Part shown: positions 9,919 to 54,809 of the stretch, in pieces | Layout of the letters: the number at the start of each line of letters is the position of its first letter | Numbering within the stretch: the first letter of the stretch is position 1 | Source: a virus | DNA length: 64,000 bases | Virus record (IMG/VR): IMGVR_UViG_3300031521_000001 | Direction: 5' to 3' (one strand) | The notes under the pieces: generated by a model | Told to the model about the DNA's origin: nothing | What the model saw: only the letters and a program-made list of their open reading frames with translations | Databases searched by the model: none | Translations under genes and position numbers: made by a program

Positions 9919-10335
9919 TTATAATATAAATCCAAATTTGATACCAATTCCTGTGCTATTAGTATAAAATACACTAGTAATCAATGTATTTTCATAAATA
10001 TATCCTATCTCTGCTCCTCCACTAAATAATTGTTTATTACTTACTAATTTAATATCATTTTGAGGTGTTGCACACATACCAGCTAACCCCATAATATAAA
10101 AATTAGAATCAAAAACATAACCTATTCCATAATTAAAATAATCTGGTAGTCTATCATCAACTGGTAATGATATGCTTAAACATTGATAAATTGATTTTTC
10201 AGAAATATATCCAAAATCTACACCAACTGATTTGCTAGAGTATGATAATTTTGTGATTAACTTAGTCTGATCATTTTGTGAAAACATTGAAATTGATATA
10301 AATAACAATACAATGATTAATTTAAAGTTTTTCAT
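9919..10335 (-). CDS. secreted small outer-membrane beta-barrel protein (OmpX/Ail/Lom-like)
   Basis: N-terminal signal peptide MKNFKLIIVLLFISISMFSQ; alternating hydrophobic strands; C-terminal ...GIGIKFGFIL ends in an aromatic/hydrophobic residue, typical of OMP barrels. Confidence 0.6.
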   Translation of the reverse strand: MKNFKLIIVLLFISISMFSQNDQTKLITKLSYSSKSVGVDFGYISEKSIYQCLSISLPVDDRLPDYFNYGIGYVFDSNFYIMGLAGMCATPQNDIKLVSNKQLFSGGAEIGYIYENTLITSVFYTNSTGIGIKFGFIL

Positions 10336-10628
10336 AATTTATTTAATTTATTTAATTTTTTCCTTCTCAAAAATTGCTCAATTTTCATATCAAGAAGTTG
10401 TTTACTAACAAAATAACTACCTCTTCCTGCGGTATAATCACACTGATCAAGCCATAATTCAAATGATATTCCGTCATCTTCAATATTTTCATGAATAATA
10501 CTAGAATATTTTCCAAATTGACCAGATTTATTTAAAATTTCAGTAGCCAATTCTAAATATTGTTCTGTAATAGAATCAGCTTTAATTATTAATTTTGATC
10601 TTTTTTCAAATGTTTCGTCGTAGTTCAT
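10332..10628 (-). CDS. hypothetical protein with RK-KL tail (FLRRKKLNKLNKL)
   Basis: ORF; C-terminal tail motif. Confidence 0.65.
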   Translation of the reverse strand: MNYDETFEKRSKLIIKADSITEQYLELATEILNKSGQFGKYSSIIHENIEDDGISFELWLDQCDYTAGRGSYFVSKQLLDMKIEQFLRRKKLNKLNKL

Positions 10629-10960
10629 TGAATTTCATCTTTTAACCAATTTAAAAAATCTTCTTCATTTGAAAAAGACAAAATAGAATCTTCATCATAT
10701 GGAAATTCACACATAACACTTGAACCAGATGTATTTTTTTCTATTTTTATATTATCTGATGTGAAAATAATTTTGACTTGAGTAGTTTCTCCTTCTTCAT
10801 AATCAGTCCAACCATAAGTTGCTTCAATAATATTATCAAAAGTTACATCATAATCTAATATTGGTCCAGTTTCACTACCATTACTATAATGTTCAGAATT
10901 TATTTTTTCTTCTTTATCAAATAAAGCAATAGCATTTAACATTACATCTGTTACATTCAT
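10625..10960 (-). CDS. hypothetical acidic protein
   Basis: ORF; first gene after a divergent region 10961-11053. Confidence 0.65.
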   Translation of the reverse strand: MNVTDVMLNAIALFDKEEKINSEHYSNGSETGPILDYDVTFDNIIEATYGWTDYEEGETTQVKIIFTSDNIKIEKNTSGSSVMCEFPYDEDSILSFSNEEDFLNWLKDEIQ

Positions 10961-11053
10961 AATATTTATATTATTAGAGATTATTAGAATGCAAAGATAC
11001 TAAATATAATTCGAATAAAAAAATATTATTTGTTTTTTTAAATTTTATTTTTA

Positions 11054-11431
11054 ATGATTATATTTAATATATATAGTCATATGAAATACTTAAAAACATT
11101 TGAATCATTATTATATAGTGATTATAAGGCTGGAGATTACGTACTACTTGATTTAATTAAAATAAAATCTAATAACAAAGATAATGATTATGAAATGGAT
11201 GAAGTTGATGAATATGGCAATTCTATACCAATTGATGAATTTGCATTAATAAAGGATAAGACTGTTGAATTAAATAATGGACTTTATTTATATAGTGTAA
11301 CTTTTTATAATTATAATAATGAAAAAAATGATTCTTATGGTGTTGAGTCAGATGAAATAATAAGAAAGCTAAATACAAATGAGATAGAAGAGTTCAACAG
11401 AAAAAAAGAAGCATTGAAATACAACATATGA
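11054..11431 (+). CDS. family A protein (MKYLKTFE...GDYVL...ALKYNI)
   Basis: array III. Confidence 0.75.
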   Translation: MIIFNIYSHMKYLKTFESLLYSDYKAGDYVLLDLIKIKSNNKDNDYEMDEVDEYGNSIPIDEFALIKDKTVELNNGLYLYSVTFYNYNNEKNDSYGVESDEIIRKLNTNEIEEFNRKKEALKYNI

Positions 11432-14719: not shown

Positions 14720-16039
14720 ATTTGTAATAGGCTGAGAAATATACCTTATACAGAAGAATCTTAAAAAGTTATTATTGTTTCTACTTTCTTTCCACTAATA
14801 TTGGTTTCCCTAACATTAGTAATTCTCAATGACAGTCAATTAGATTAACTAATCCTTTTGTTGTTAATTACTCTCTCAGTACTTATTACCTATCTAGGTT
14901 GCCACCCAAACTCAATCTTGCTACAGATTTAAGGAATTTTTCTGAAAATCATGTCAAACTTGGGGTTCTTCACGGCTACGACGATTTTCATCTCATAACT
15001 AGTAGTCACCTTTCATCAACAACAGTCGAACACTTTTCCTTTATTTGTTTTATTTTAATTGTGCATTAAATTTGCAATTTAAAGTTTGTTTTGTGGATAA
15101 TGAAAGTAGTGGTTCGACAACCAGCGTCTCCATCTTTTGAACGGAAATATACTAAACTACTCTCTGAGATATCCCTATCTCCATATTTTAAGTCAACTAA
15201 GATACTCTCATAGCACTTGGTAATGCTAAGGTAACCTTAATAACAGCACCACCTGTACATTGTATTACAATCTAATATTACCTTTCGGTTTTAAGCTAAC
15301 TCTCATAATGGACAACGCAATTATACAACTGGAAATCGTATTTCTTGCAATAATCCTTCAGGTTATTCTTATTGATGTTCCCATCTCACTTAGACTACCC
15401 ACATAGCCTTTGCATTAAACCACTTTCTCTACAGTGTTACCCTCGATAATTAAGGTTTAATGATATCCTGATTGTCTGCTCAAACACTAAATAATGTATT
15501 AATAACAAATTAACTAACTATTAACTATTCATATTAATGAGTATGTGAAGAATCTTACCGAAGCAAAATCAATTACACACAAAAAAATGTGTCAAATTAA
15601 TAATTGTTGTATCTGTTGATTAATAAATAATTTAATGTCGCAAATATATAGAAACAACTACATATTCACTTTATCCTACTTTCGTAGTTTATTTAATGAC
15701 TACAGACAGCCAAATATTTTCAATTTTTACAAAGAACGCTTTTAATAAAAAACAAACATTTAGATTGTAGTAAAAATTTATACTATCACTTCTTAACTAA
15801 AAGAAGTTAGTTCTAATAAAAGGAATTAACCTTTTAAACTTGTAAATTAACCATTTTCATAGTTATATATACTAATCAATCTAAATGTGTTGTTTCTTGT
15901 TGTTTCAAGTACGTTTACTTGAAAAATGACACAAATCTATTTCAGTCCATTTTTTTCTTTTCAGAACTTTTTTCAGTGGAACAATAAACATTTGGTATGT
16001 TCATTATATTTACTGTTATAATATAAATCCTTAAATTTG
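14720..16039. other. unique ORF-free, GC-richer (pyrimidine-rich on the plus strand) noncoding segment of the 3.8-kb island
   Basis: no ORF of 60 aa or more on either strand; composition differs from coding flanks. Confidence 0.5.
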
Positions 16040-24726: not shown

Positions 24727-25082
24727 AAACATATCAACAATTTAATGAAATGAGCAATGTTGGATGTACTATATTTTTCAAAGTATATTTTAAATTTGAA
24801 AATGTGTATAAACAAATTGAGATATTAGATGAAAATAGAATAGATTATGATATATCTTATCATAATAAATTCATTAAAATAGATGCTTATGCTTATTCTA
24901 TAAGTGAGTATAATTTTCTTATATCAATTGAATTCAAAATAAATAAAAAATCACAAGAACTAATAAATCCAAATATGTCACTTGATAAAATTAGAAGTAT
25001 TGTAAAATCAGACAAAGGTTGGACGCCAACAAGTAAAGAAGAATTACCATACATTAATGATATAAATAAATTCAACTTATGA
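24723..25082 (+). CDS. family A variant, N-term MKTYQQFNE (closest to T4 MKTYQEFIAE), C-term INKFNL
   Basis: array IV. Confidence 0.75.
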   Translation: MKTYQQFNEMSNVGCTIFFKVYFKFENVYKQIEILDENRIDYDISYHNKFIKIDAYAYSISEYNFLISIEFKINKKSQELINPNMSLDKIRSIVKSDKGWTPTSKEELPYINDINKFNL

Positions 25083-25585
25083 AATATATAAAAAGATTTG
25101 AAAGTATAATAACAGAATTGAATTACTCAAGTAAAGGATTAACTTCTTTACCTGAGTTGCCTGATACATTAAAGAATTTGGGATGTCATCATAATAAATT
25201 AAGATATCTACCAGAATTACCAACTACATTAGAAGAATTGTTTTGTGGCGATAATGAGTTAAAAAAATTGCCAACTTTACCAAACACAATAACAAATTTA
25301 ATGATTCATCATAATGATTTGACAGAATTGCCAGATCTACCAGATTCATTGATAAATTTTTCATGTGGGCATAATAATTTAACTGAAATACCAAAATTAC
25401 CAAATAATTTAGTATATTTTTTATGTGATAATAATAATTTATCTGAATTACCAGAAATGCCAGAAACTGTAACTCAATTTAGTTGTAAGTATAATAATTT
25501 ACCATATGAAGATTTGAATGGATATTGGGATTGGTTTTATGATAGAAATCCAGAAAGAAAACAAGCAAAAAAATTCAACTTATGA
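25079..25585 (+). CDS. leucine-rich-repeat protein in family A frame (MKYIKRFE...AKKFNL)
   Basis: about 7 tandem LRRs of 20-22 aa (LPELPDTLKNLGCHHNKLRYLPELPTTLEELFCGDNELKKLPTLPNTITNL...). Confidence 0.8.
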   Translation: MKYIKRFESIITELNYSSKGLTSLPELPDTLKNLGCHHNKLRYLPELPTTLEELFCGDNELKKLPTLPNTITNLMIHHNDLTELPDLPDSLINFSCGHNNLTEIPKLPNNLVYFLCDNNNLSELPEMPETVTQFSCKYNNLPYEDLNGYWDWFYDRNPERKQAKKFNL

Positions 25586-26097
25586 GATATTTAAAAAAAT
25601 TTGAAAAATATAATGCATCTTTAGATTTAAATTATATTTTAGAAGATGATGTATATAGTGATTCAGATGCAATAAAATTATTAAAAAAAGTGAAATATGC
25701 TATTGACAATGATTGTGTTATTGATAATATTAATATACATTGGATGGAAAGAACTCCTTTAATTACATGCGCTGTTTTAGACTGTCATATAAAAACCCAG
25801 TCTAAATATAGAAATATATTTGAGCAAATAGCAAAAGAACTAATTAATTCAGGAGCTAATATAAATCATATAGATAAAGATAACAGAAGTGCTTTAATAT
25901 GGGCTACAGATAGAGGACATTTTGATGTAATGGAACTATTAATTGAAAATGGCGCAGATTGGAATATTATGGATGTATTCCATCATGAATTTCATGAATA
26001 TTTGAGTGATGAACATTTTGAAAAAATTATTCATAAATATCCAGAACAATATGAATTGTATAACATGAAAAACAACACGAACAAATTCAATTTATGA
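25582..26097 (+). CDS. ankyrin-repeat protein in family A frame
   Basis: ELINSGANINHIDKDNRSALIWATDRGHFDVMELLIENGADWN. Confidence 0.8.
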   Translation: MRYLKKFEKYNASLDLNYILEDDVYSDSDAIKLLKKVKYAIDNDCVIDNINIHWMERTPLITCAVLDCHIKTQSKYRNIFEQIAKELINSGANINHIDKDNRSALIWATDRGHFDVMELLIENGADWNIMDVFHHEFHEYLSDEHFEKIIHKYPEQYELYNMKNNTNKFNL

Positions 26098-36835: not shown

Positions 36836-37159
36836 ATGAAATATATAAAGAAATTTGAAAATACTGAAGATAAACCAAAAGTTGGTGATTATGTATTGAT
36901 ATCAATTGATAATGATGAAGAAAATGATTTTTACTCTAATAATCCAGGACAAATTATTAAATTTTTTACTCTACAAAAATATAGGTTTACAGTTATGATA
37001 TCATATGGTAAAAACATTCCTGATAACATGAAAAATATATTATTACTTAATAAAAGATGTGGTTATTATAAAATTTTTGACTATGAAGATATCTTCATAT
37101 TTTCTAAAAATAAAGAAGATTTAAAACTAAAAATAGCATCAAATAAATTTAACTTATGA
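36836..37159 (+). CDS. family A small protein (MKYIKKFE...GDYVL...ASNKFNL)
   Basis: array V. Confidence 0.8.
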   Translation: MKYIKKFENTEDKPKVGDYVLISIDNDEENDFYSNNPGQIIKFFTLQKYRFTVMISYGKNIPDNMKNILLLNKRCGYYKIFDYEDIFIFSKNKEDLKLKIASNKFNL

Positions 37160-39034: not shown

Positions 39035-39342
39035 AACACATTAAAACATTTGAAAATAATTATGAATATGCAGAAGTTGGAGATTATGTTATTATTAATG
39101 TGAATAATCTAAAATTCAGCAATGATAATATAGGTAATATTTACAAGAAAATGTTAACTGATAATGTATATAAAATAATTGACAGTAAAATAGTATCAGG
39201 AAACAGACAAATATATCTAATTGATTTATATGACGATGAACATATTAACGGATATTATATTGATAGTAAGAATGTATTAGCATTTGATAAAGATAAAGAA
39301 TTTGTTAAATGTAAAAATGATATAAACAAATATAATTTATAA
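39031..39342 (+). CDS. family A small protein (C-term INKYNL)
   Basis: array V. Confidence 0.8.
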   Translation: MKHIKTFENNYEYAEVGDYVIINVNNLKFSNDNIGNIYKKMLTDNVYKIIDSKIVSGNRQIYLIDLYDDEHINGYYIDSKNVLAFDKDKEFVKCKNDINKYNL

Positions 39343-39672
39343 AATATTTAATTTTTCTAACTTCCTCTTTCTTTGAATTGATTTATAATCAAAATGCTCA
39401 ATTATTTCTTCTTCAGTTAATAAGGCTAAATTACAATTACGATTAGAATAAATATATATTTCTGATTCTACTGTATAACATTTATATTCAAGGCAATAAT
39501 GTGCATATTTATATTTATTACCTTTTATAAATGTGTGATTTTGAAAACCTAAATCATATTTTGTCCAATCATCTAATGATATTAGAATATCTCCTACACT
39601 TAAATCAAGCTTATTCATATCTATTAATTTTATATCAAACAAAGATACAAAATATTTTTGGTTAAATAACAT
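39337..39672 (-). CDS. hypothetical protein with RK-KL tail (QRKRKLEKLNIL)
   Basis: ORF convergent with array V. Confidence 0.65.
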   Translation of the reverse strand: MLFNQKYFVSLFDIKLIDMNKLDLSVGDILISLDDWTKYDLGFQNHTFIKGNKYKYAHYCLEYKCYTVESEIYIYSNRNCNLALLTEEEIIEHFDYKSIQRKRKLEKLNIL

Positions 39673-39718
39673 TTTAATAATAAACTTTCATATAATTTTT
39701 GATACAATAAAATAAACT

Positions 39719-40612
39719 ATGAAAGAATTAGAATTAAAAAAATTAGTACATTCAACTATAGACAACACTATCAAGTATATTTTTTATACTGAAGATAAAT
39801 TGATAGTTGAATTTTCTTATATCAATAAGAATGATGGTAAAAATATTATTTGCTGTCCAGTTTCAACATTTTGTAATATAGGCTGCAAATTTTGTCACAC
39901 AGCAGAATATATTGGTAAAATTAAAAATAGAAACCTAACATCATTAGAGATTTCAAATGGAGTTGATTATATTTATAATGATTTGAAACTATCTGAAAAC
40001 CCAAAAACTTTATTGATAAGCTCCATGGGTATTGGTGAAATTGTAACCAATGTTGATGAAGTTGTAGAATCAATGATAAATATTCAAAATACTTATCTTA
40101 AAGATATATATGTTAGATTTGCATTTGCAACATCTTTACCTGAATCTCACAAAATCGAGTTTTTCAAATTGACAAATAAAATTGCAGAGAATAATTTACC
40201 TGTTAAGTTGCATCTATCATTACATTATACAACAGATGAATTAAGAAGTCAATGGATGCCAATGTCAATGAAAATTGAACCAACTATTGCAGCAGTTGAT
40301 TACTATAAAGCAACTACAGGAAATGATGTTGAAATACATTATGCACTAATAGAGAATGTTAATGATAAATCAGAAGATGCTATGAGATTAAGCAATCTTA
40401 TTAAAGGTAAAGGTTATAATGTTAAATTTTTATTCTATAACAAGAAAGATAATATAGACGCTGAACCATCTAACATTTCTAAAATTAGAAACTTTGTTGA
40501 TATATTTAGTCTTGTAGGAATAAAACATGAATACTATGTACCTCCTGGACTCACAATTGGAGCATCTTGTGGTCAACTATCTATAAATGAGTATATTAAA
40601 ATAAAAAAATAA
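39719..40612 (+). CDS. radical SAM enzyme of the RlmN/Cfr family (RNA adenine C2/C8 methyltransferase), N-terminally truncated relative to bacterial RlmN
   Basis: CNIGCKFCHTAE (Cx3Cx2C, compare RlmN CALECKFCSTAQ) and C-terminal GASCGQL (compare the RlmN Cys355 motif AACGQL). Confidence 0.75.
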   Translation: MKELELKKLVHSTIDNTIKYIFYTEDKLIVEFSYINKNDGKNIICCPVSTFCNIGCKFCHTAEYIGKIKNRNLTSLEISNGVDYIYNDLKLSENPKTLLISSMGIGEIVTNVDEVVESMINIQNTYLKDIYVRFAFATSLPESHKIEFFKLTNKIAENNLPVKLHLSLHYTTDELRSQWMPMSMKIEPTIAAVDYYKATTGNDVEIHYALIENVNDKSEDAMRLSNLIKGKGYNVKFLFYNKKDNIDAEPSNISKIRNFVDIFSLVGIKHEYYVPPGLTIGASCGQLSINEYIKIKK

Positions 40613-40630
40613 TAATTAAATAATAATTAA

Positions 40631-42091
40631 ATGAATAATAGAAACTTCATATTACATATAAAAGAAGATAAATACAAAAAATTATTAATTGATTATATTT
40701 TTAAATATCGTCAATTCGAAAACTTATATCTTATAATATTAAAAGAGAATAAGGATGATTTTAATTTTTTATCTAATTATAAAGTAATGAGAGCTATTCT
40801 TGCGGAAACTACTGGAGGTAAAGATAAAAATGAAGTTGATTTTATTAGATATAAATATAAAGAAAATGATAAAATGAATGAATTAATTATTTTATCAAAA
40901 AGTCTTAAAATACATAATATTTCAGATTTGATTAAAAGAGTAAAATCAAATTATAAATCTTTTTTCACTAAAATAAGAAATAAAGTTAAAGCCAACGTTC
41001 CATGTACAAAAAAGTTATCACTATTGACTAAATATTCCATTCTAGTTGATAAAATTGCATTTTCAATAAAGAAAAAGGATAAAATTGGAATCAACTTGAG
41101 TAATAAAATGTTTTATATTGATTTTAAGCATAAAATATTACCAGATAATATACAAAGTCTTAAAGTCGTTTACTCAAATAAAGAAGTTTATTTACATTTT
41201 AATTACTTGACTGAAGATATATTAAACACAAATAATTCATTAATAAAAGAAGCAGGAATAGATGTAGGTATTAATAATTTATTAGCTATATTTATTGATG
41301 ATAAAACATCTAAATCAATAATTGTTGACGGAAATATTTTTAAAACTTATAATTCAAAATTCAACAGGTTCTTGTCTAAACTTAATGAATCAATTTCTAA
41401 AGAAGTCATAGAATTTAAACTCAGTAATACTGGTACTAAATATGCAGTTAAGTGGACTAAAAGAGGAATAGAATTACGTAAATATAAGACATTTATTTAT
41501 GAAAAAAGAAATCGTTATTTTTATGATCAATTTCATAAAGTTAGTAAACGTGTGGTTGAATTATTGAAATTAAATTCTGTAAACAATCTAACAATTTCAT
41601 ACAATCTAGCTAGATTAAAATATAATGGTGATTGTAAATTAAATAAAAAAGTAAAACAAAATTTCATACAAATTCCTTTCATAAAACTACTAAATTACAT
41701 TCAATATAAAAGTAATGAAGTTGGAATTCAAGTAGATATAATTGATGAATCTTACACATCAAAGTGCTCATGTATTAGTGATAATGTGAATGATCCGTTA
41801 GATAAAGAACTAAATGGTGTTCGTTCTAAAAGAGATTTATTTACTGATAAACTAATAAATAAAACAATGAATGCTGATTTGAACGGTGCTGTCAATCATA
41901 TAAAAAAATCAAACAAAAATAATAATTTTTCTTGGTTGGAAAATTATATGTTTAAACTGTGTAATCCAGTTAAAATTAAATGCGACTACGATTTCTTTAA
42001 ATATTTAAAGAATAGTGTGCTCTGGCAAGGAATTTCATCAAAAGAAGTTCAAACGTCACTTCATGTACAAAATTGTACAAGTTTAAGTTGA
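40631..42091 (+). mobile_element. tnpB: IS200/IS605-family (IS1341-like) TnpB RNA-guided nuclease homolog; no tnpA
   Basis: RuvC-I GIDVGINNL, RuvC-II RVVELL, hallmark ESYTSKCSC, RuvC-III NADLNGAVNHI; second CxxC of the zinc finger is missing. Confidence 0.85.
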
Positions 42092-42216
42092 CGAATTTGA
42101 TTACTGCTGTATATGTTAAGTAATTTTAATAAAATTAAAGATGATGAATTTCATGAATTAAGAAGACAATATATTGAAAAGTTCAAAATTATTAGAAGAT
42201 TATATAAATAATAAAT

Positions 42217-42432
42217 GTGATGGAAAAATTTAAAATTGGAGATAATGTAATTAAAAATAAAGAAATCTGGATAAGTAATGATTTTGATGGTTGGGGTAGA
42301 GGAATTGGAATTGGTATTGTTATGGAACCTCCATTTGAGATGAATGACAATGAAGTTGATATTAGATGGAACGGTGGTAGATGTTTTGAATTTACAGAAG
42401 AATTAATAAATATTAGTATAGAAAATGAATGA
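42217..42432 (+). CDS. hypothetical small protein
   Basis: ORF downstream of tnpB; preferred over the antisense ORF 42192..42440. Confidence 0.5.
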   Translation: MMEKFKIGDNVIKNKEIWISNDFDGWGRGIGIGIVMEPPFEMNDNEVDIRWNGGRCFEFTEELINISIENE

Positions 42433-42459
42433 GTAATCACGCATTAAGTATAAAAAAAC

Positions 42460-42491
42460 AAAAGATTGAATGAGTAATCATTCAATCTTTT
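42460..42491. terminator. hairpin aagattgaatga-gtaa-tcattcaatctt
   Basis: 12-bp stem with A/T flanks; direct repeat gaatgagtaatca at 42427 and 42468. Confidence 0.65.
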
Positions 42492-42748
42492 TTTATAAAT
42501 TATTACAGGTATTTATTTATAAAATGGCATACTTCAGTTCTTTTTTGGATCCCTCTGTAACTTAGACCTATTAATTTTTTTAGTCCTGCGACGAACTTGC
42601 TATCGTTTTTCAATGGCATCGTAGTTCCACTTCGTCTTACAAATATAATATCATAAAATCACCAAGACAGTATGGTATCGCTTGTTGTAATTTCAACAAA
42701 ATGAATAACATAACTTTACAATAATAATACTTTAATAATTTATATTTA
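42492..42748. ncRNA. GC-richer ORF-free 250-bp segment with internal inverted repeats; candidate small RNA, or the right-end/guide-RNA scaffold of the TnpB element
   Basis: composition shift relative to the flanks; inverted repeat gacgaa...ttcgtc. Confidence 0.3.
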
Positions 42749-43129
42749 TTAATTAAAGCTAAAGTTAAAAAATAAAAAATTTAAAATATCATCACATTTC
42801 CTTATAGAATTAATGAACTCTAATCTATTTTGATATAATGCTTCTAAACCAATTGAAATACCATCAAACTCTTCTAATTTATACTTAGTCCTTGGTACAT
42901 TAAAATAATCATAACCACCAAAAATTTTATGAGTTATCATAGATATATTAGCAAGACAAAAGTGTGTTCTCAAATCAGGTTGTAAGTAAGTATTGTTAAT
43001 CTCACTCACTTCCTTTAATGCATATTCTATAAGCTTCCTTTCAACAATATTACGAACAATACCATTAAACTCTATTTGGTGAGTATCAATTGTTAATTCT
43101 TCTTCTGGTGGATAAACTGCTACTGACAT
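42749..43129 (-). CDS. hypothetical protein
   Basis: ORF. Confidence 0.65.
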   Translation of the reverse strand: MSVAVYPPEEELTIDTHQIEFNGIVRNIVERKLIEYALKEVSEINNTYLQPDLRTHFCLANISMITHKIFGGYDYFNVPRTKYKLEEFDGISIGLEALYQNRLEFINSIRKCDDILNFLFFNFSFN

Positions 43130-54297: not shown

Positions 54298-54489
54298 AAT
54301 TTAAAATTTATTATTCAGCATAATAACCGCCGTGTCTACCTATTTTCAAATATAAATATCCTAAAATTCTTAAATATCTATAACCTTGTAATGTATATAC
54401 AATTCTAACATCTGTATAGTCAGCAAATATAAATTTAAATAAAGTATTGTTTTTTTTGAGTATGAGTTTTCATATTTTTAATTTTGTAG

Positions 54490-54578
54490 GAAGAATGACT
54501 GGATTCGAACCAGTAATAATTTATAATTTTTTACAAATGCTTTTTTGGCTACTAGTTTACCGATTAACTTACATTCTT
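54490..54578 (-). tRNA. tRNA-like gene, 89 nt: perfect 7-bp acceptor stem, D-arm AGTT-AATCGGTAA-AACT, T-arm ACTGG-TTCGAAT-CCAGT. The anticodon region is about 15-20 nt too long (intron or long variable arm); anticodon unresolved
   Basis: reverse complement of 54490-54578 folds into acceptor, D and T arms with canonical GG and T-Psi-C-like motifs. Confidence 0.55.
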
Positions 54579-54709: not shown

Positions 54710-54809
54710 TAGTTAAGGCGGGACTCGAACCCGCATGAGAAATTAATCTCTGAGATACCTCATTAATAGGATTTTAATCCTAAACGTCTAACCATTTCGT
54801 CACCTAACT
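54710..54809 (-). tRNA. tRNA-like gene, 100 nt: acceptor AGTTAGG/CTTAACT (one G-U pair), U8, D-loop AAATGGTTAGA, T-arm GCGGG-TTCGAGT-CCCGC. About 26 extra nt in the anticodon/variable region (stem-loops aggat-taaaa-atcct and atgag-N21-ctcat), probably an intron
   Basis: strong acceptor and T-arm pairing read from the reverse complement. Confidence 0.5.

Follow-up and report, generated by a model that had tools for sequence, protein, structure and literature searches.

A probable 5′-truncated IS607-family insertion with tnpB and a predicted guide RNA in an AT-rich, phage-like genome

The tnpB gene and its IS607 relatives

The 64,000-nucleotide stretch of viral DNA analyzed here (IMG/VR record IMGVR_UViG_3300031521_000001; hereafter the window, whose coordinates are used throughout) contains a tnpB open reading frame (ORF) of 486 amino acids (aa) at positions 40631-42091 on the plus strand, as a preliminary description made from the same letters had noted. 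The ORF is preceded by the 3′ remnant of a tnpA gene, overlaps the predicted scaffold of a guide RNA at its 3′ end, and is followed by the remnant of a phage gene. These features very probably represent a 5′-truncated IS607-family insertion sequence in a phage genome, made up of the tnpA remnant, an intact tnpB ORF, and a right end that encodes a guide RNA.

The product was identified as TnpB from Pfam and NCBIfam profiles, homologues, and an AlphaFold2 (AF2) model compared by Foldseek. It passes the Pfam cutoffs for OrfB_IS605 (PF01385, 32.9 bits against 30.5) and Cas12f1-like_TNB (PF07282, 41.7 bits against 26.3). Residues 43-422 align with positions 17-385 of the 389-position NCBIfam profile guided_TnpB (NF040570), where the score of 81.8 bits falls below the cutoff of 100, indicating that the protein belongs to a divergent subfamily. 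A single-sequence phmmer search of the Protein Data Bank (PDB) returned no match, and comparison with PDB entries by sequence was done with the family profile for that reason. The AF2 model (predicted local distance difference test score, 83.5; disordered tail at residues 464-486) matched Cas12f (E = 1e-13), ISDra2 TnpB (8H1J, 1e-11), ISFba1 TnpB (8IAZ), and mimivirus Fanzor2 (9B0L, 3e-10) in alignments covering ~450-490 columns. The WED/REC and RuvC fold is present in the model, and this coverage indicates that the first ~200 residues form the normal WED/REC part. The preliminary description had taken these residues for an N-terminal extension, a view that does not survive the profile alignment from residue 43 or the size of the homologues (at least 289, all of 450-560 aa). 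The extra length sits instead between RuvC-I and RuvC-II and in the disordered tail.

A putative acidic triad is retained: D211 (GIDVG, RuvC-I), E373 (IDESYTSK), and D416 (NADLNGAVNHI, RuvC-III) are invariant among 22 aligned relatives, which include Aquificae, Caloranaerobacter, Caminibacter, and Desulfurella genomes. The preliminary description had placed the glutamate of the triad in VVELL, but that residue (E310) belongs to the preceding helix. When the family profile is aligned to Cas12f, the canonical RuvC-II glutamate slot is occupied by an invariant serine (Ser323 in the window protein), and E373 aligns with the proline of VDPxYTSQ, which is the relocated-glutamate position. Fanzors and one clade of TnpBs, marked by D-hydrophobic-G in RuvC-I, have been described as having such a relocated RuvC-II glutamate (PMC10711439), and E373 is the putative catalytic glutamate of the window TnpB. 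Neither this protein nor any of 21 relatives has CxxC pairs, so the C4 zinc finger, whose second CxxC pair had been noted as lost, is missing. The loss is a trait of the whole family, multicopy bacterial elements included, rather than a modification specific to the phage; because it has been reported for "some large TnpB branches" (PMC10691335), it does not exclude membership in TnpB.

In several respects the protein resembles the relocated-glutamate, D-hydrophobic-G clade of Yoon et al. (2023) and the clades that Altae-Tran et al. (2023, PMC10691335) distinguished by NADXN or by a rearranged RuvC-II: it has NADLN, a motif placed in the "derived" NADXN group (PMC10691335), a nonacidic residue (Ser323) in the canonical glutamate slot, an invariant glutamate two residues before YTS, and DVG/DIG rather than DPG, and the group is common in Aquificae. 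It could not be assigned to any of the named branches RIIr-3, RIIr-5, and Ser-x. The search pattern of Yoon et al. required CxxC…CxxC (PMC10711439), so a family without the zinc finger would have been missed.

DNA homology between the window and each of its close relatives is limited to ~40599-42094, with a sharp right end and unrelated flanks. These relatives are L009 (98.4% nucleotide identity), L143 (84%), L001 and L002 (83%; IMG/VR contigs of 208-222 kb), and L006-L008 (78%). The right ends of the close relatives all terminate at …GTTTAAGTTGACG(G/A), and homology to L009, L001, L006, and L143 ceases at …GTTGACG(G/A). In L143 (TnpB identity, 84%), L144 (55%), and the Caloranaerobacter locus L023, a gene of 197-203 aa encoding a MerR helix-turn-helix (HTH) and a resolvase domain overlaps the tnpB start codon, and the L143 product matches the NCBIfam model "IS607 family transposase" (NF033518) at 184 bits, above the cutoff of 110. 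The presence of tnpA in these relatives and its absence from the window indicate that the lineage is IS607 and that the window copy is a truncated derivative, and the IS605 assignment of the preliminary description is accordingly replaced. That TnpB stands without a transposase was correctly seen, since no left-end motif, serine recombinase, or second tnpB occurs anywhere in the 64-kb window. None of the relatives was found to have an adjoining Y1 transposase; the transposase that accompanies the element is of the serine-recombinase type. An IS200/IS605 element of the Y1 type with a very short left end was also considered and rejected, because the relatives have serine recombinases and a left end of ~100 nucleotides (nt).

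The left end (carets mark the element boundary) reads AAAAGG^TTAGATTCCGTTACAAAAAATTTAAAC… in L143, GAAGG^… in L144, and AAGAGG^TTAGATTCAGTTAC… in L001, where tnpA is internally deleted and the left end retained. In 12 copies from Caloranaerobacter azorensis it is typically GGAGG(N)^TAATTAACAGTTACAAAA…, with one variable nucleotide after AGG in most and exactly AGG in L037. At the other end, CGG terminates 71 of 75 family tails. IS607 crossover takes place between GG dinucleotides, and the TnpB of ISXfa1 uses a GGG motif (PMC10711439); by sequence, the family ends (AGG on the left and CGG on the right) match both. The bacterial copies of the element family are multicopy, and solo TnpB copies are common in the clade (L006, L145, L001, and copies in C. 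azorensis). Multiple copies with canonical ends had been named beforehand as the mark of a plain active insertion sequence; such copies exist among the relatives, although in the window copy the left end is gone.

Three further observations concern these relatives. The Caloranaerobacter element typically lies between a Shine-Dalgarno-like GGAGG and an ATG a few nucleotides past the right end (right flanks viewed in L014, L020, L023, L033, L048, L052, and L054; left flanks in L036-L057), so that these insertions separate the ribosome-binding sites of host genes from their start codons. On the 13-kb contig L006, the gene for the 75%-identical TnpB is followed 4.4 kb downstream by one for another TnpB that differs from it (10003-11223, plus strand; 406 aa, with an HTH_OrfB_IS605 domain); a D12 methyltransferase and a dUTPase are also encoded on this contig. 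One family member, P0108 (627 aa), has MerR/HTH_17 domains in front of TnpB annotated as one protein and may be a tnpA-tnpB fusion or a miscalled overlap.

Empty site and 5′ truncation

The element is missing from two sister phage contigs from IMG/VR, L010 and L011, whose synteny with the window extends for more than 10 kb (76-89% identity). Positions 4614-5896 of L010 correspond to 39330-40614 of the window, and positions 5952-6611 to 42089-42748. L010 has an intact 65-aa ORF (5899-6096), lying between a radical-SAM gene and a 71-aa gene and containing …AAA ATG GAA AAT GAG GGA TTT GAT TAT TGC…. The empty site of both contigs reads …GAG-GG-ATTTGATTATTGC…, and homology between the window and L010 restarts exactly at …GAC-GA^ATTTGATTACTGC, which puts the insertion at the GG of GAG-GG-ATTTG. 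As judged from these alignments, the element entered at the GG in …AATGAG-GG-ATTTGATTA…, inside a small phage ORF. What is left of this gene downstream of the element (42095-42216, plus strand) lacks the first ~55 nt of the L010 ORF and has two frameshifts in pairwise alignment.

The other boundary is a deletion junction, which lies with the 3′ remnant of tnpA at 40603-40638 on the plus strand. The window follows L010 to position 40606, and from position 40603 it matches the last ~30 nt of L143 tnpA, so that the shared AAAA constitutes a microhomology. Alignments to both sequences thus show a deletion, later than the insertion and with its junction in the A-run (40603-40606), that removed the left end, nearly all of tnpA, and ~55 bp of target DNA in which the 65-aa ORF began. 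An 11-bp tandem repeat immediately upstream of tnpB, reported in the preliminary description, was recovered by Tandem Repeats Finder at 40607-40639 (period 11, 2.9 copies, 95% matches) and is part of the tnpA remnant (…KLNNNLNNE codons). Its interpretation as an insertion scar or target duplication was rejected, as it occurs in L009 as well and aligns to the 3′ tnpA codons of L143.

The upstream neighbor is a radical-SAM gene (39719-40612, plus strand) whose best matches are the RlmN/Cfr rRNA/tRNA adenine methyltransferases (TIGR00048, 133 bits, below the cutoff) and whose product is 91% identical in L010 and L011. Its TAA stop codon (40610-40612) falls inside the tnpA remnant. The idea that removal of the element would extend this ORF (…KIKK+NLITAVYVK) was discarded, since the gene keeps its length at the empty site and the flank belongs to the separate 65-aa ORF. 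A second indel difference lies near the TnpB site, where L010 alone has minus-strand ORFs of 97 and 123 aa (within 6612-7277) between the segment corresponding to the window up to 42748 and the homologue of window ORF 42749-43129.

Guide-RNA scaffold, downstream segment, and genomic background

The predicted guide-RNA scaffold (right-end RNA, or omega RNA) spans ~113 nt at 41982-42094 on the plus strand and is supported by covariation, a covariance model, and synonymous constraint. It lies wholly within the last ~37 tnpB codons plus the stop codon and ends at the element boundary. Over the ~115-180 nt leading up to the right end, at least 70 loci of the family share the same arrangement, in order a hairpin, AATAGTGTGTCGGGTAAG, a second hairpin, GGCGTCGC, a third hairpin, and GTAAGTCGACGG. 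The window helices, all on the plus strand, are P1 (41993-42001 with 42004-42012), P2 (about 42030-42036 with 42044-42050), P3 (42066-42071 with 42076-42081), and a closing helix (42054-42058 with 42089-42093).

RNAalifold applied to 26 relatives predicts 27 base pairs, 19 of which show compensatory changes. The alignment cells of the scaffold are paired in 91.4% of cases, compared with 36-49% when partners are slid by 1-3 columns, and double-change cells number 115, compared with 17-32 in these slid controls; the observed values were not reached in any of 500 shuffles. These helices also form when the window scaffold is folded alone (z = −2.86). With the covariance model, 41982-42094 scores 84.2 bits and is the only match in the window; the model finds nothing in L010, which lacks TnpB. 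It also recovers L143, L145, and L146, three loci outside its building set, and did not report L144, a family member by eye, probably through filter loss. Inspection by eye revealed no consistent covariation for a pseudoknot in which the conserved block that comes first, GCGACTAC, would pair with AAGTCGACGG at the terminus, and Rfam searches (gathering thresholds over the whole window; E-value mode over 41700-42800) returned nothing relevant for the element or its tail.

Synonymous constraint coincides with the scaffold. The synonymous substitution rate (dS) is ~0.1 in the last 37 tnpB codons and ~0.8 earlier, and synonymous-site identity rises from ~0.6 to ~0.8 past codon 447. The ratio of nonsynonymous to synonymous rates (dN/dS) is 0.11-0.17 over the first 450 codons, against relatives of 75-84% identity, and at least 1 in the last 37. 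The collapse in dS and the predicted disorder of residues 464-486 indicate that the C-terminal tail is RNA-constrained read-through rather than a protein domain.

The right end of the window copy terminates in GA (42093-42094, plus strand), at the position of the IS607 crossover dinucleotide, which is GG in nearly all relatives. The flank directly 3′ of it, ATTTGATTACTGCTGTATAT (42095-42114, plus strand), is the predicted guide, positioned from the right-end boundary. The start of the guide is uncertain by 1-2 nt, because the scaffold of ISXfa1 takes in the first nucleotide of the flank (PMC10711439). The empty allele of L010, GAGGG-ATTTGATTATTGCTTTAGAC, is identical to the guide at 16 of 20 positions, the first 9 nt being a perfect match. 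No other match with two or fewer mismatches occurs in the window.

A second site is informative about the geometry of these insertions. L143 carries a full IS607 element (tnpA and tnpB), and its right flank (2411-2593) matches window positions 25520-25702 at 82.7% identity. The window is uninterrupted there, reading AATGG^ATATTGGGATTGG (AATGG^ATATTGG) at the 3′ end of an ORF at 25079-25585, so that each of the two phages has, uninterrupted, the site that is occupied in the other. The left flank of L143 shows no homology to the window, indicating that this site has also been rearranged. Reciprocal empty sites are the geometry that would be expected of TnpB-mediated retention or homing.

Beyond the phage gene remnant lie the two features previously described there: a 71-aa ORF (42217-42432, plus strand), which the sister phage has conserved, and a hairpin at 42460-42491 that resembles a terminator, with an A-run on one side and a T-run on the other. 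The segment that follows (42492-42748) had been described as GC-richer and free of ORFs, and as a possible omega-RNA scaffold or guide-RNA partner. Its G+C content is 26.8%, compared with 23.7% for the window, a level matched by 22% of 257-nt windows, and it contains a 38-aa basic ORF on the minus strand (MPLKNDSKFVAGLKKLIGLSYRGIQKRTEVCHFINKYL, 42503-42619), of which L010 has a conserved version of 39 aa. A distance of 400 bp, occupied in part by a resident gene and the hairpin, separates the segment from the right end, and the segment is ~91-93% identical in the sister phages that lack TnpB. It matches neither Rfam nor the scaffold model, and its folding energy is ordinary on both strands (42496-42748; z = −1.2 and −0.7). 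By these comparisons the segment is resident phage DNA and no part of the element, and the scaffold lies in the 3′ end of tnpB instead. The minus-strand ORF is followed by this terminator-like hairpin (42460-42491), which has a T-run on the same strand, and ~250 bp around it are more conserved than the neighboring genes in one comparator. A 17-nt pattern taken from the segment was found in viral contigs only in the same two sister contigs. Possibly, going by the one comparator, the segment is a small minus-strand gene, for a protein or an RNA, with its end at the hairpin.

The window is very AT-rich (the G+C content of 23.7% has a standard deviation of 4%), contains many small paralogous genes and a GOLLD RNA, and looks like part of a large phage genome. 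A megablast search with 20 kb of it found no match among GenBank phages, and tblastn against the same set recovered only relatives at no more than 33% identity. The GOLLD RNA, a large structured RNA of unknown function found in phages and lake metagenomes, is full length (14729-15164, minus strand; Rfam RF02032, 243 bits, E = 7e-68). Two unusually long tRNA-like matches (90-100 nt) lie on the minus strand, one at 54489-54578, a tRNA-Phe with anticodon AAA by ARAGORN, and one at 54710-54809, found by Rfam only; they may contain introns or be atypical tRNAs. At ~25 sites in the window, a large family of small tandem paralogous genes, some with leucine-rich-repeat-like or ankyrin-like repeats, ends in …(N/K)KFNL and overlaps the start of the next gene (…TTTAACTTATGAAATATTTAAAAAAATTTGA…). 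These overlaps generate a junction repeat of ~40 nt scattered through the window, for example at 338, 681, 988, 1302, 1634, 11423, 12154, 13597, 23128, 25069, 25582, and 26565 and again at 37140, 37773, 38447, 38737, and 39013.

Competing explanations, possible mechanism, and implications

The anatomy of the locus indicates an ordinary selfish insertion of the IS607 type that has lost its transposase and left end. As in IS607 of Helicobacter pylori and in ISXfa1 (Yoon et al. 2023, PMC10711439), the tnpA of the relatives encodes a MerR-HTH and resolvase protein and overlaps the start of tnpB, GG is present at both junctions of these relatives, a G-rich motif adjoins the left end, and the right-end guide RNA overlaps the 3′ end of tnpB. 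The window copy differs in lacking tnpA and the left end and in its terminal GA, and its clade differs in lacking the C4 finger and in having a scaffold entirely within coding sequence. ISDra2 TnpB with its omega RNA (IS200/IS605; PDB 8EXA and 8H1J) is similar in overall fold, in drawing its guide from the right-end flank, and in that the predicted target is the unoccupied site; it differs in its Y1 HUH transposase, single-strand transposition 3′ of TTGAT, canonical glutamate, and C4 finger, and it is ~13% identical to the window TnpB. Fanzor2 of giant viruses (PDB 9B0L) shares with the window TnpB a viral location, IS607 ancestry, the relocated glutamate, and a structural match, but its motif is DPG, it retains a zinc finger, and it is found in viruses of eukaryotes, unlike the TnpB of this bacteriophage-like genome with its GOLLD RNA.

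Several observations weigh against this interpretation. The GG crossover predicted from the AGG and CGG ends of the relatives and the GAG-GG-A empty site of L010 meets a right end of GA and a deleted left junction in the window. In the closest relative, L009, the contig end cuts off the upstream end of the element and with it any tnpA. The role of E373 as the catalytic glutamate is deduced from alignment position and invariance, and TnpB activity, RNA processing, guide length, and recognition motif are likewise predictions from sequence. The L010 allele mismatches the guide at positions 10, 15, 18, and 20 and may not be cut. Finally, the window copy may be inactive, given the substitution G402D, a scaffold in which the conserved motif GTGTNCGGG is altered at two positions, and its pattern of divergence from L009.

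This last concern can be taken further, to a locus of the same anatomy in which TnpB, its RNA, or both are already nonfunctional and the ORF is open only because truncation was recent. The 18 coding differences from L009 comprise 3.5 synonymous and 14.5 nonsynonymous changes (dN/dS, ~0.96), as expected under neutrality. Within the KRGLF motif, the window has the derived change G402D at a glycine retained in 20 of 20 relatives; T126, R328, L464, and W465 are also derived, L464 and W465 reflecting a pair of substitutions in the scaffold motif that is the most conserved (GTGTGTTCGGGC to GTGTGCTCTGGC), and the scaffold scores 10 bits below that of L009. Yet the ORF is open across 486 codons, the three acidic residues and all scaffold helices are retained, several of the differences lie on the L009 branch, and values of dN/dS near 1 are common at very recent divergence without functional loss. 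A dead relic is possible, though less likely than not; the changes, which are few, fit an early relaxation of constraint after stranding.

The preliminary description had favored a domesticated RNA-guided nuclease, in which a fixed, zinc-finger-less TnpB and an RNA from 42492-42748 would target host or competitor DNA. The intact triad, the immobility of a copy without left end and tnpA, and the orientation of tnpB with the phage genes, 18 nt after one of them, are all compatible with this, but other results contradict it. The insertion is polymorphic, being absent from sister phages at ~88% identity, and copies 75-98% identical in DNA, the closest at 98.4%, stand in unrelated flanks; the size of the protein and the missing zinc finger are family traits shared with multicopy bacterial elements; the proposed RNA segment is conserved where TnpB is absent and has neither a scaffold match nor unusual folding; constraint on the protein is relaxed (dN/dS of ~1 against the nearest relative, with a change at an invariant glycine); the insertion destroyed a resident ORF; and the predicted guide corresponds to the element's own insertion site, not to a non-self target. 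Domestication is therefore extremely improbable. The comparison with TldR and other exapted TnpBs runs the same way: these are also phage borne and immobile, but they are nuclease dead, fixed in their lineage, and directed at host promoters, unlike the window TnpB, with its intact triad, polymorphic locus, and a guide matching its own empty site. Alternatively, the locus might be a complete TnpB-only element (IS1341-like), mobilizable in trans, whose left end is the ~20-30 nt before the ATG, as the solo copies in the clade could suggest. Intact or multicopy solo copies keep a left end of ~100 nt, TA(A/G)(T/A)T…CAGTTACAAAA after AGG, however, and this motif is absent from the window, where the sequence before the ATG aligns to tnpA coding sequence; moreover, the loss of ~55 bp of the target gene is not a product of site-specific integration. 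This explanation, too, is improbable.

For the truncated IS607 insertion, a mechanism can be proposed from its features. TnpB would process its own transcript into an RNA whose 3′ ~16-20 nt, from position 42095, serve as the guide. The complex would recognize an (R)AGG- or GGG-type motif together with a guide match, which is to say the unoccupied allele, and cleavage by the RuvC site (D211, E373, and D416) would favor retention of the element or its copying by recombination (homing). Lacking its left end and tnpA, the window copy could presumably no longer transpose, and with G402D and the altered scaffold motif it may already be decaying. A further step, which we consider unlikely, is that the stranded tnpB and guide RNA are kept because they act like a free-standing homing endonuclease of phages, with RNA supplying the guidance, and cut sister phages that carry GAGGG-ATTTGATTA… in mixed infections. 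If so, sister genomes would be converted or outcompeted, and the L143 element could likewise target this phage at 25520, giving a reciprocal network of RNA-guided targeting among large AT-rich phages.

Together, the filled site, the empty site, a full-length relative, and multicopy bacterial relatives yield a concrete prediction of motif, scaffold, and guide for a zinc-finger-less, relocated-glutamate clade of IS607 TnpBs that has no characterized member and that pattern searches needing CxxC motifs miss. TnpB-only genes in phages should be compared with sister genomes before they are called domesticated, and paired filled and empty alleles in related phages offer a natural setup for testing TnpB homing between coinfecting phages.

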